NCBI RefSeq assembly: GCF_041886205.1
Contig: NZ_CP169029.1
Source of the DNA: Escherichia coli
Lineage (GTDB): Bacteria; Pseudomonadota; Gammaproteobacteria; Enterobacterales; Enterobacteriaceae
DNA: 64,000 nucleotides
Reading direction: 5' to 3' (one strand)
A model generated the notes under the pieces. The model was not told the DNA's origin and ran no database searches. It worked only from the letters and a program-made list of their open reading frames with translations. This document shows, one piece after another, positions 31,379 through 36,632 of the stretch; within the stretch, counting starts at the first letter, position 1, and each line of letters opens with the position of its first letter. The position numbers and the translations under genes were made by a program.

Positions 31379-34703
<3,325 letters not shown>

Positions 34704-34917
34704 CGCGCACCTCGTGGCTGATTATGGACGGCGTTATTGGCAAAGTGGAACAAGACTCACTCCCGGGTCAGCAAACTCGAAAAATTGACGCTCCCATTAT
34801 TTGTGCTTTCGTTTTTTTCTATCCGCCAATAAACCCGTTTTTTTGTTGCTATTTAGCGCCTTTGTCTTATTGACTTACTGGTAGGCTTTGCTACCAGAAA
34901 TTATCCGGGAGATAAAA

Positions 34918-35232
34918 ATGTCAGCGATACAGGGGATTGAAGGGGTTATCAGCCAGTTACAGGCCACGGCGATGAGTGCGCGTGCGCAGGAATCACTGCC
35001 GCAACCGACCATTAGTTTTGCCGGGCAGCTGCACGCCGCGCTCGATCGCATAAGCGATACACAAACAGCCGCCCGCACGCAGGCAGAAAAATTCACTCTC
35101 GGTGAACCCGGCGTGGCGTTAAACGATGTGATGACCGATATGCAAAAAGCCTCAGTTTCTATGCAAATGGGGATTCAGGTGCGTAATAAGCTGGTGGCGG
35201 CGTATCAGGAAGTGATGTCCATGCAGGTGTAG
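34918..35232 (+). CDS. fliE: Flagellar hook-basal body protein FliE (104 aa)
   Basis: [47 protein letters not shown]...; divergent from fliF. Confidence 0.95.
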
Positions 35233-35525
35233 GTTGTGTGACCTGTTGTTGATTACATCCGATTTTACCGCGTGGGCATGGATGGGGCAAACTCACTCAA
35301 TTTCTGGTTTAAAATGGATACCTGATCCTGAAAGTTTTCTGCCATCCACGATCCGTATACGCGATAAACCCTCTGATCATCAGAGCCCTCATTTGATACA
35401 CATCACCACGTCGGATGTTGTTACGACCGCAGACGCAACAGTAACGTTTGAATAATTTAATCTTTGTTGATGTTTTTATTCATATTCCGGGCTAGGGAAA
35501 TAATCAGGCGTAATTGTGTCACTGG

Positions 35526-35594
35526 AATAGAGGTTTCTTGTGGCGCATGTGGAAGGAGCGTCTACTTTGTCTAATAGAGATTTCTTATGACGCA
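35526..35594. repeat. Imperfect 22-bp direct repeat pair, spaced 47 bp start-to-start, in the yedK-fliE convergent intergenic region
   Basis: AATAGAGGTTTCTTGTGGCGCA (35526-35547) versus AATAGAGATTTCTTATGACGCA (35573-35594): 19 of 22 identical, all three differences are G/A transitions. Confidence 0.5.
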
Positions 35595-35623
35595 GTATTA
35601 TTGATCAATAGTCTCCTGGCTTA

Positions 35624-36292
35624 TCAAACCGGTTGAATTAACTCCGCTCCCTGGTTTTTGATATTACCCACCGCGCGCGATACCGGGTGCCAGGTGAACT
35701 GGTTTGCTGGCACACAACCACTGGTAGCGATTTCTGAGGCTTCTTTACCGCTAATCTCTTGCCGCATCCATTCCCGCGCAGCTTCTGGCGACAGTACCAG
35801 TGGGCGGCGGTCATGAATATCTACCAGACCCTGGTCTGCTGCTGCAGTGACAATCAAAAATCCTTCGGCTTCGTCACCGCGCTCGAACGGTGTGCTGCCT
35901 ATCGCGGCCAGAAAAACAGGTTGTCCATCAGCACGATAGATAAAATAAGGCTGCTTTTTGTCGCCTTCTTTTTTCCACTCAAACCAGCCATCGGCAAAAC
36001 AGATTGCCCGACCATGTTGCCAGAGCGGTTTAAACATGCGACTGGTTGCGGCAGTTTCTACGCGGGCGTTAATCAGCGGCGGTTTATCCCACCATCCGGG
36101 AGCATATCCCCAGAAAACCGGATCCAGATGAAGGTGTTCATCACGTTCACTGAGCAGTAGGACTTTGGTTCCCGGCGCGACGTTGTATCTGCCAATGGGT
36201 TCGGGATCATAGGGAATATCGCGTTCAATATCTTCCGCGAGAAGCGCAAGGTAATCTTCACGCGTTTGGGATTGGGCAAAGCGTCCACACAT
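35624..36292 (-). CDS. yedK: Abasic-site processing protein YedK (SRAP/SOS-response associated peptidase, 222 aa)
   Basis: MCGRFAQSQTREDYLALLAEDIERDIPYDPEPIGRYNVAPGTKVLLL... catalytic Cys2. Confidence 0.93.
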   Translation of the reverse strand: MCGRFAQSQTREDYLALLAEDIERDIPYDPEPIGRYNVAPGTKVLLLSERDEHLHLDPVFWGYAPGWWDKPPLINARVETAATSRMFKPLWQHGRAICFADGWFEWKKEGDKKQPYFIYRADGQPVFLAAIGSTPFERGDEAEGFLIVTAAADQGLVDIHDRRPLVLSPEAAREWMRQEISGKEASEIATSGCVPANQFTWHPVSRAVGNIKNQGAELIQPV

Positions 36293-36398
36293 AGAAACCT
36301 CCTGAGATCATACTGAAAAGAATAGGAGAGGGGGCGGGTAAAATCTATGTGTCAGAGGTAACGATGTTCCCGCTGTGGGCCACAGCGGGAATGAGGGA

Positions 36399-36632
36399 TT
36401 ACTTCTGAATTAAATAATGAATGGTCGGCCCGTCTTGCTGAATATCCAGCACCGTATAGCCGTGATTACGCGCATCCAGTGGAATATTATTGATCGACTG
36501 CGGACAGTCGCTCACCACCTCCAGAATTTCCCCTTTTTTTAACTGCGGCATCGCCTCAAGAGTTGCGACTGCCGGATAAGGGCAGGGTTCACCCACCATA
36601 TCAAGGCGGTAATCAGGAACGATATTTTTCAT
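36399..36632 (-). CDS. yedF: TusA-like sulfur/selenium carrier protein YedF (77 aa)
   Basis: MKNIVPDYRLDMVGEPCPYPAVATLEAMPQLKKGEILEVVSDCPQS... CPxP motif. Confidence 0.92.
   Translation of the reverse strand: MKNIVPDYRLDMVGEPCPYPAVATLEAMPQLKKGEILEVVSDCPQSINNIPLDARNHGYTVLDIQQDGPTIHYLIQK

Follow-up and report, generated by a model that had tools for sequence, protein, structure and literature searches.

A short fliE–yedK spacer in Escherichia coli is probably a twice-deleted island that retains a yedL upstream element and its diverged copy

The window (the whole stretch of Escherichia coli DNA analyzed here, 64 kb long) carries, in order, fliF (33045–34703, minus strand), fliE (plus strand), a 391-bp spacer, yedK (minus strand), yedF and yedE. 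The last base of the fliE coding sequence is 35232, and yedK, on the opposite strand, has its stop codon starting at 35624, which leaves 35233–35623 for the spacer; its length, as first noted, is borne out by the open reading frame list and the sequence. The gene fliE is annotated as such in NZ_AP027829.1, a record that is 100% identical, and the record of E. coli 2017.17.03CC, 100% identical over the spacer, annotates nothing between fliE and yedK. Comparison with the K-12 reference (NC_000913.3, 2005000–2016000, hereafter locus L001) resolved the spacer and its boundaries into the following features.

34918–35232, plus strand: fliE coding sequence, the spacer's left boundary (open reading frame list and sequence; translation matches FliE)
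35233–35501, minus strand: phage-type integrase pseudogene remnant, the equivalent of K-12 intG (92% identity to L001 7700–7432)
35498–35501: yedN/espR junction, at which the 1212-bp K-12 segment L001 6220–7431 is absent (BLAST segments abut with a 4-bp overlap)
35498–35564, plus strand: sp67, the orphaned 3' flank of yedN/espR, corresponding to the K-12 yedN–yedL intergenic spacer (67 bp, 94% identity to L001 6219–6153); holds repeat copy 1
35515–35547, plus strand: hairpin with 5' arm TGTGTCAC (35515–35522), inner 4-bp stem, 7-nt loop and 3' arm GTGGCGCA (35540–35547)
35526–35547, plus strand: repeat copy 1, AATAGAGGTTTCTTGTGGCGCA (pattern search and sequence)
35564–35565: yedL junction, at which the 603-bp K-12 segment L001 5550–6152 is absent (no microhomology)
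35565–35623, minus strand: sp59, the orphaned yedL upstream region, corresponding to the K-12 yedK–yedL intergenic spacer (59 bp, 95% identity to L001 5549–5491); holds repeat copy 2
35573–35594, minus strand: repeat copy 2, AATAGAGATTTCTTATGACGCA in plus-strand reading and TGCGTCATAAGAAATCTCTATT in minus-strand reading (pattern search and sequence)
35624–36292, minus strand: yedK coding sequence (SOS response-associated peptidase), the spacer's right boundary

Results

The K-12 locus reads yedK, yedL, the yedN pseudogene (now including the former yedM), the intG pseudogene and fliE, which agrees with the content named in the first-pass annotation. Window positions 35100–35501, 35498–35564 and 35565–35800 match L001 7833–7432, 6219–6153 and 5549–5314, respectively, and the three spacer parts are each ~92–95% identical to K-12. 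Exactly between these matching pieces, K-12 holds two additional segments: 1212 bp comprising the yedN leader and coding sequence (L001 6220–7431), and 603 bp comprising the yedL leader, coding sequence and terminator hairpin (L001 5550–6152). To call the junction 'empty' compared with K-12 overstates the absence of yedL and yedN: intG remnant accounts for 269 of the 391 bp, and the two intergenic spacers of the island make up the remaining 122 bp. Stop codons break the translation of the integrase remnant, which is labeled 'integrase, incomplete' by PGAP in genomes with the same arrangement (type A below, e.g. L004); sp67 also stands after the espR3 and espR4 stop codons in O157. The window therefore shares its locus, flanking genes, integrase remnant and two intergenic spacers with the K-12 yedL–yedN–intG region ('cryptic prophage PR-G' in NC_000913.3), but lacks the 1212-bp yedN and 603-bp yedL segments, and its two 22-bp repeats lie 47 bp rather than 650 bp apart.

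The 22-bp imperfect direct repeat was found exactly where it had been reported, at 35526–35547 and 35573–35594. The copies agree at 19 of 22 positions, all three differences being G/A transitions, and the 47 bp is measured from start to start. A degenerate pattern search allowing up to three mismatches returned these two sites only in the 64-kb window (expected number, 0), and of 2000 shuffled versions of the 391-bp spacer one contained a 19/22 direct pair; the repeat is genuine and exceeds chance. Homology between the copies past the 22 nt was not detected by sensitive local alignment with shuffles, and a 15-nt match between their surroundings (ACAAAGATT..ATTA) was equaled or beaten in 30 of 500 shuffles.

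In K-12 the copies lie at L001 5520–5541 and 6170–6191, one on each side of yedL, and neither K-12 nor the window has a copy near intG or fliE. The expectation that the 22-mer would flank the whole yedL-to-intG insert holds in part: one copy does stand at each side of a K-12 insert, but that insert is the 603-bp yedL segment alone. Nor do both repeats sit unchanged beside the island in K-12, where yedL splits them. The proposed connection of the 22-mers with a presence/absence polymorphism is thereby supported, whereas the idea that they form the attachment-site core of the island is not, since both copies sit at the integrase-distal end, with yedL alone between them. They resemble the attL/attR core repeats of prophages in being short direct repeats in a region with an integrase remnant, but differ in bracketing one cargo-sized gene and in that copy 2 accompanies yedL in genomes without this island. 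An unoccupied attachment site, with a single core and no element DNA, was likewise rejected: in the window the 269-bp integrase remnant, the two island spacers and the two copies are all still in place.

Junction-specific searches over 5426 complete E. coli genomes placed yedL between the repeats in ~1287 genomes, the adjacent pair of the window type in 1013, and a single hybrid copy without yedL in 390; the region was wholly absent from ~2700. Of the adjacent-pair genomes, 886 reach 99% identity or more to the window across a 161-bp query that covers the repeats. Per genome the region matched a median of one place, always at the fliE–yedK locus apart from a few weak matches to other features. 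With essentially one locus matched per genome, the 22-mer is confined to this locus in E. coli and does not recur widely as a generic or dispersed sequence; a dispersed repeat of the REP, BIME, ERIC or MITE kind was rejected on the same count and on the two matches in the window. Six arrangements were distinguished, where int' and int'' denote integrase remnants.

Type A (window): int' – sp67 – sp59
Type B (K-12): int' – yedN – sp67 – yedL – sp59
Type C (Nord58, L008; F2_81, L091): int' – yedN/LRR gene – one 22-mer – yedK
Type D (O157:H7): tandem int' – espR4 – sp67 – yedL' – int'' – espR3 – sp67 – yedL – sp59
Type E (B2-type strains): int' (about 120–135 bp) – emrE – ybcL – ybcM – IS200/IS605
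Type F (M160133, L089): int' – sp67 – yedL – sp59

All four combinations of yedN and yedL presence and absence occur (K-12 and L007; Nord58, L008; M160133, L089; window), and type F, in which yedL is still present, has the window's yedN junction. In type C the single repeat copy, AATAGAGGTTTCTTGTGACACA, joins the copy-1 upstream flank in register to the copy-2 downstream flank, with sp67 positions 1–51 and sp59 positions 9–59 overlapping across it. Unequal exchange between two copies, or its reverse, is expected to give this arrangement. Position 20 of the type C copy is A, against G in both K-12 copies, and the flank on the yedK side has diverged (TTTTAGTTCATC versus GTATTGTTGATC; 84% identity to K-12 over 51 bp). 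A substitution of its own together with a diverged flank marks type C as an old allele, not a recent recombinant, and in principle it might predate the two-copy arrangement.

The locus as a whole thus fits a repeat-mediated deletion polymorphism, with 1287 yedL-bearing genomes beside 390 single-copy ones (e.g. L008 and L091). Like known cases of deletion and duplication at short direct repeats, by unequal exchange or slipped mispairing, it presents a repeat–gene–repeat arrangement, one in-register hybrid and a tandem amplification (O157). The window differs from these cases: its loss of yedL falls between the repeats (endpoints 35564/35565), spares the two copies and has no microhomology at either end. 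A 603-bp deletion so placed was not mediated by the repeats, and the window allele is not a product of exchange between them.

Types D and E showed further rearrangements. In O157:H7 F6667 (L003 4515–8687; also L103 and L104) the int'–espR–sp67–yedL module is present in tandem, giving espR4 and espR3, and the tandem junction fuses position 404 of the yedL segment with position 17 of the integrase remnant. Expansion thus takes place at this locus in addition to contraction. About half of the complete E. coli genomes carry emrE–ybcL–ybcM with an IS200/IS605 tnpA between fliE and yedK, as in JJ1887 (L005 5978–9592), where yedK is truncated, and AR434 (L006 6001–10745), which also has tnpB. These loci have only ~120–135 bp of the integrase remnant in common with the window. 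We take emrE, ybcL and ybcM to be DLP12 prophage cargo in K-12.

K-12 yedN and O157 espR4 (L001 7140–6350 versus L003) are ~65–80% identical only inside the leucine-rich-repeat region, and their gene ends and flanks are 90–100% identical. Going by this identity profile, the internal divergence looks like diversification or recombination among the repeats of that region. A replaceable yedN/espR cassette was considered and rejected: the divergence is limited to the internal leucine-rich-repeat region, and its boundaries do not match the deletion boundaries.

YedL is a GNAT acetyltransferase with homologues of 75–85% identity in E. fergusonii, Enterobacter, Yokenella, Buttiauxella, Serratia fonticola and others. 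The genes next to yedL in these taxa were as follows.

E. fergusonii: pdeL/aldo-keto reductase
Yokenella: LysR gene
Enterobacter and one further taxon: queH
Buttiauxella: DUF4056
Serratia: HAD/porin

The flanks of E. fergusonii yedL map in E. coli to another variable region (pdeL, ehaA, aldo/keto reductase). The yedL loci of E. fergusonii, Yokenella and Enterobacter become alignable with K-12 DNA from L001 5509–5525 onward, at copy 2, and the homology continues unbroken over 5549/5550, the window's deletion point, into yedL. We aligned the upstream regions of seven taxa and found a block, CATAAGAAAYnnnTATTRGACR, with little or no variation in most columns; it is present in L092, L096, L098, L099, L100 and L101 and at window 35565–35589 (minus strand). 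It lies ~55–86 nt before the ATG in gene neighborhoods that are largely unrelated among the seven taxa, and is followed by a second conserved patch resembling YTTGTTnnTATRTT. Copy 2, located 60–81 nt before the yedL ATG, corresponds together with the adjacent 8 bp (35565–35572) to this block (CATAAGAAATCTCTATTAGACAAAG, window 35565–35589, minus strand). Conservation upstream of orthologues, at a similar distance and independent of gene context, as expected of a cis-element, was thus found in seven taxa.

From these alignments, copy 2 is part of the native upstream element of yedL. The element contains a -35-like TAGACA with CATATT 20 nt on (CATATT at L001 5567–5572), and an ATA-N9-TAT dyad of the T-N11-A type. 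A consensus scan called no sigma-70 promoter at K-12 copy 2, which we attribute to the 20-nt spacing between TAGACA and CATATT. The element is probably a promoter-proximal or operator site, and CATAAGAAAT and TATTAGACA would be the element sequences tied to such a putative promoter role. Our search of the literature on yedL, yedK, fliE, EspR3/4, yedN and intG found no published yedL start site or binding data and nothing on this spacer or on yedL regulation. In six other taxa copy 2 adjoins yedL without a break, and it therefore marks the loss of yedL, not a target awaiting insertion. Its presence without yedL argues that the window allele descends by deletion from a yedL-bearing ancestor and does not represent a site that had never been occupied. 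Orphan promoter or operator fragments of decaying islands offer the closest comparison: here, likewise, a cis-element found with yedL in seven taxa stays beside yedK after the loss of the coding sequence. The difference is that the activity of the yedL element is a prediction, at a place where a simple sigma-70 scan makes no call.

The suggestion that the repeats are paired binding sites for a regulator accordingly stands for one half: copy 2 is a deeply conserved yedL upstream element, but the gene is gone in the window and copy 1 is off consensus. The 22-mers could nevertheless be a working site pair for the transcription factor that regulates yedL elsewhere, acting in the window on fliE read-through or yedK 3' processing, or serving as decoys. 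The position of copy 2 inside the seven-taxon block with its ATA-N9-TAT dyad would fit such a role, as would the retention of both copies intact in 1013 genomes, 886 of them at ≥99% identity to the window; this identity among type-A genomes is, however, expected from recent common descent and hence uninformative on selection. Several invariant positions of the consensus are changed in copy 1. The genes to either side are convergent, so that both have the sites downstream of them, neither strand has a promoter-like site close by, and ~2700 genomes do without the region entirely. We regard a working site pair as quite unlikely.

Copy 1 makes up the loop and 3' arm of a hairpin at 35515–35547, which follows the espR stop; copy 1 is always preceded by ATTGTGTCACTGG, 28 nt after the yedN/espR stop codon. 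The hairpin has an 8-bp outer and a 4-bp inner stem (12 pairs) and a predicted RNA fold of -14.1 kcal/mol (z = -1.25, within the shuffle range). In the window it lacks a T-run and continues into TGTGGAAGG. In its type C counterpart (L008) the stem is perfect and TTTT comes next (-15.3 kcal/mol, z = -2.64); on the folding model, this hairpin looks like an espR terminator; the scanner called no terminator there, owing to its loop limit.

These folds bear on the possibility that the repeats belong to a small-RNA gene, one of the readings first offered for them, or that they terminate transcription of fliE or yedK. The 12-pair hairpin around copy 1 and the perfect hairpin with TTTT of the single-copy allele speak for such a feature. 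Against it, Rfam had no match in 34600–36400 at E ≤ 1, and the promoter and terminator scan of the window spacer found no terminator and a single promoter-like site that is well away from the repeats. The window hairpin, with no T-run, folds no better than shuffles, and folds of the region as a whole do not stand out on either strand (z = -0.45 and +0.22). The small-RNA idea thus found no support and a Rho-independent terminator in the window was rejected for the missing U-run; a function of either kind is very unlikely.

Compared with the yedL element's consensus across genera, copy 1 has CACAAG for CATAAG and TATTCCAGTGACA for TATTAGACA. From its sequence and its position just beyond the yedL terminator, it would be an older, partial and diverged duplicate (paralogue) of the yedL element. 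A tandem duplication of 650 bp may have given rise to it, most of the second unit then being lost; tandem duplication does occur at this locus, as type D demonstrates. We found no tandem yedL paralogue that would explain copy 1; a 188-aa E. coli variant (P0001) is the same locus, not a second gene. In K-12, L001 6195–6224, directly after copy 1 in the yedL direction, contains a promoter-like GTGACA, an 18-nt spacer and TACATT, oriented antisense into the yedN 3' end. This arrangement parallels TAGACA...CATATT after copy 2, and its -10 part is gone in the window.

Discussion

The spacer is probably a twice-deleted derivative of a K-12-type island, in which the 22-mers are the orphaned yedL upstream element and a diverged second copy of it. 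The ancestral layout would have been fliE – int' – espR/yedN – yedL – yedK. One deletion would have removed yedN/espR (1212 bp) and another yedL (603 bp), the latter reaching from between the -35-like and -10-like hexamers through the terminator, and what was left over would be an integrase fragment and two intergenic spacers. With yedL present, the copies would be direct repeats 650 bp apart that mark the exchange points of the second yedL-less allele, the one with the hybrid copy; for this type C allele, a 650-bp repeat-mediated deletion is a possible route. In the window, the adjacent copies have no predicted function of their own. The case is one of ordinary gene and island decay, with no new system.

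The flanking of yedL by repeats could also be read as a trace of mobility. In such a scheme yedL would be a ~650-bp mobile cassette, exchanged by site-specific or Campbell-type recombination at the 22-bp site, with attL/attR-like repeats, an empty or excised site in the single-copy allele and an internally deleted cassette in the window. It would account for yedL being flanked exactly by the repeats, for the one in-register hybrid copy in 390 genomes, for the different gene neighborhoods of yedL in most taxa examined, and for the states of the single-copy allele that are absent from both K-12 copies. Homology between genera also begins at the 22-mer, although an upstream element is naturally an edge of conservation, so this start requires no mobility. 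E. coli has no associated recombinase, however, and the segment has no attC core sites, no terminal inverted repeats and only chance-level resemblance to dif (15/28 against a shuffle mean of 14.3). The other genera examined have the upstream copy alone, with none downstream of yedL, the queH–yedL synteny common to two taxa suggests vertical descent, and the window keeps both copies, unlike the outcome of simple excision. A cassette is therefore quite unlikely.

That yedL and the 22-bp element form a self-contained ~650-bp unit moving between chromosomal sites by recombination at the element is, in our estimate, highly improbable. Were it true, a mobile yedL unit would explain both the largely different neighbors and the occupied, precisely emptied and gutted states of one E. 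coli site, and it would represent a recombinase-less or trans-mobilized single-gene cassette, a kind so far undescribed.

Several established element types were also compared with the repeats and rejected. A target-site duplication of a transposon or insertion sequence does not fit segments of 603 bp and 650 bp without inverted ends, in which the GNAT gene is the sole open reading frame and no transposase is present, nor does it fit the occurrence of copy 2 with yedL in six other taxa. The integron attC core patterns RYYYAAC and GTTRRRY are absent from both strands of 35500–35623. For a Xer/dif site of the IMEX kind, the 15/28 score was the best ungapped match to E. coli dif, and shuffles reached a maximum of 18.

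Under the preferred reading, deletion from a K-12-type island, a short spacer at a known island position can be a secondarily stripped island and not the ancestral empty site, and repeats of this kind can be relics of a lost gene's control region. A by-product is a strongly conserved, hitherto uncharacterized element upstream of yedL-family acetyltransferase genes in seven enterobacterial taxa, which could help to find the regulator and function of the poorly understood yedL. Over thousands of genomes the locus presents five states, namely an intact island, absence of yedN alone, absence of yedL reached by two routes, absence of both genes, and tandem duplication; this allele series is usable for studying the part that short repeats play in gene loss. 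The present view of mobile elements or regulation is unchanged by these results.

Beyond E. coli, a YedK-anchored synteny scan with one genome per species returned 80 loci, among which yedE–yedF–yedK–fliE is kept only in Franconibacter. No other Escherichia species appeared among these 80 loci, and the YedK-homologue search likewise returned no orthologue from E. albertii or E. fergusonii, so yedK itself may belong to the variable region. YedK homologues in Enterobacter, Citrobacter and related genera (L010–L088) have 80–87% amino acid identity and do not lie beside yedEF or fliE, except for one Enterobacter locus with yedE–yedF ~3.5 kb upstream; several genomes have two YedK copies. At the other boundary, Franconibacter pulveris has an integrase C-terminal fragment adjoining the fliE 3' end (L081 10636–10860), and the K-12 intG annotation (L001 7503–7781) overlaps the last 81 bp of fliE. 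The arrangement of these fragments suggests that the fliE 3' end may be an old, reused integration hot spot. Enterobacterial yedK (71–98% identity) also appeared on contigs labeled as a Lachnospiraceae MAG, Chryseobacterium, Streptococcus infantis and Streptomyces morookaense (L009, L018, L058 and L077); these contigs are probably assembly contamination, and L009 is an E. coli B2-type yedK–fliE fragment.
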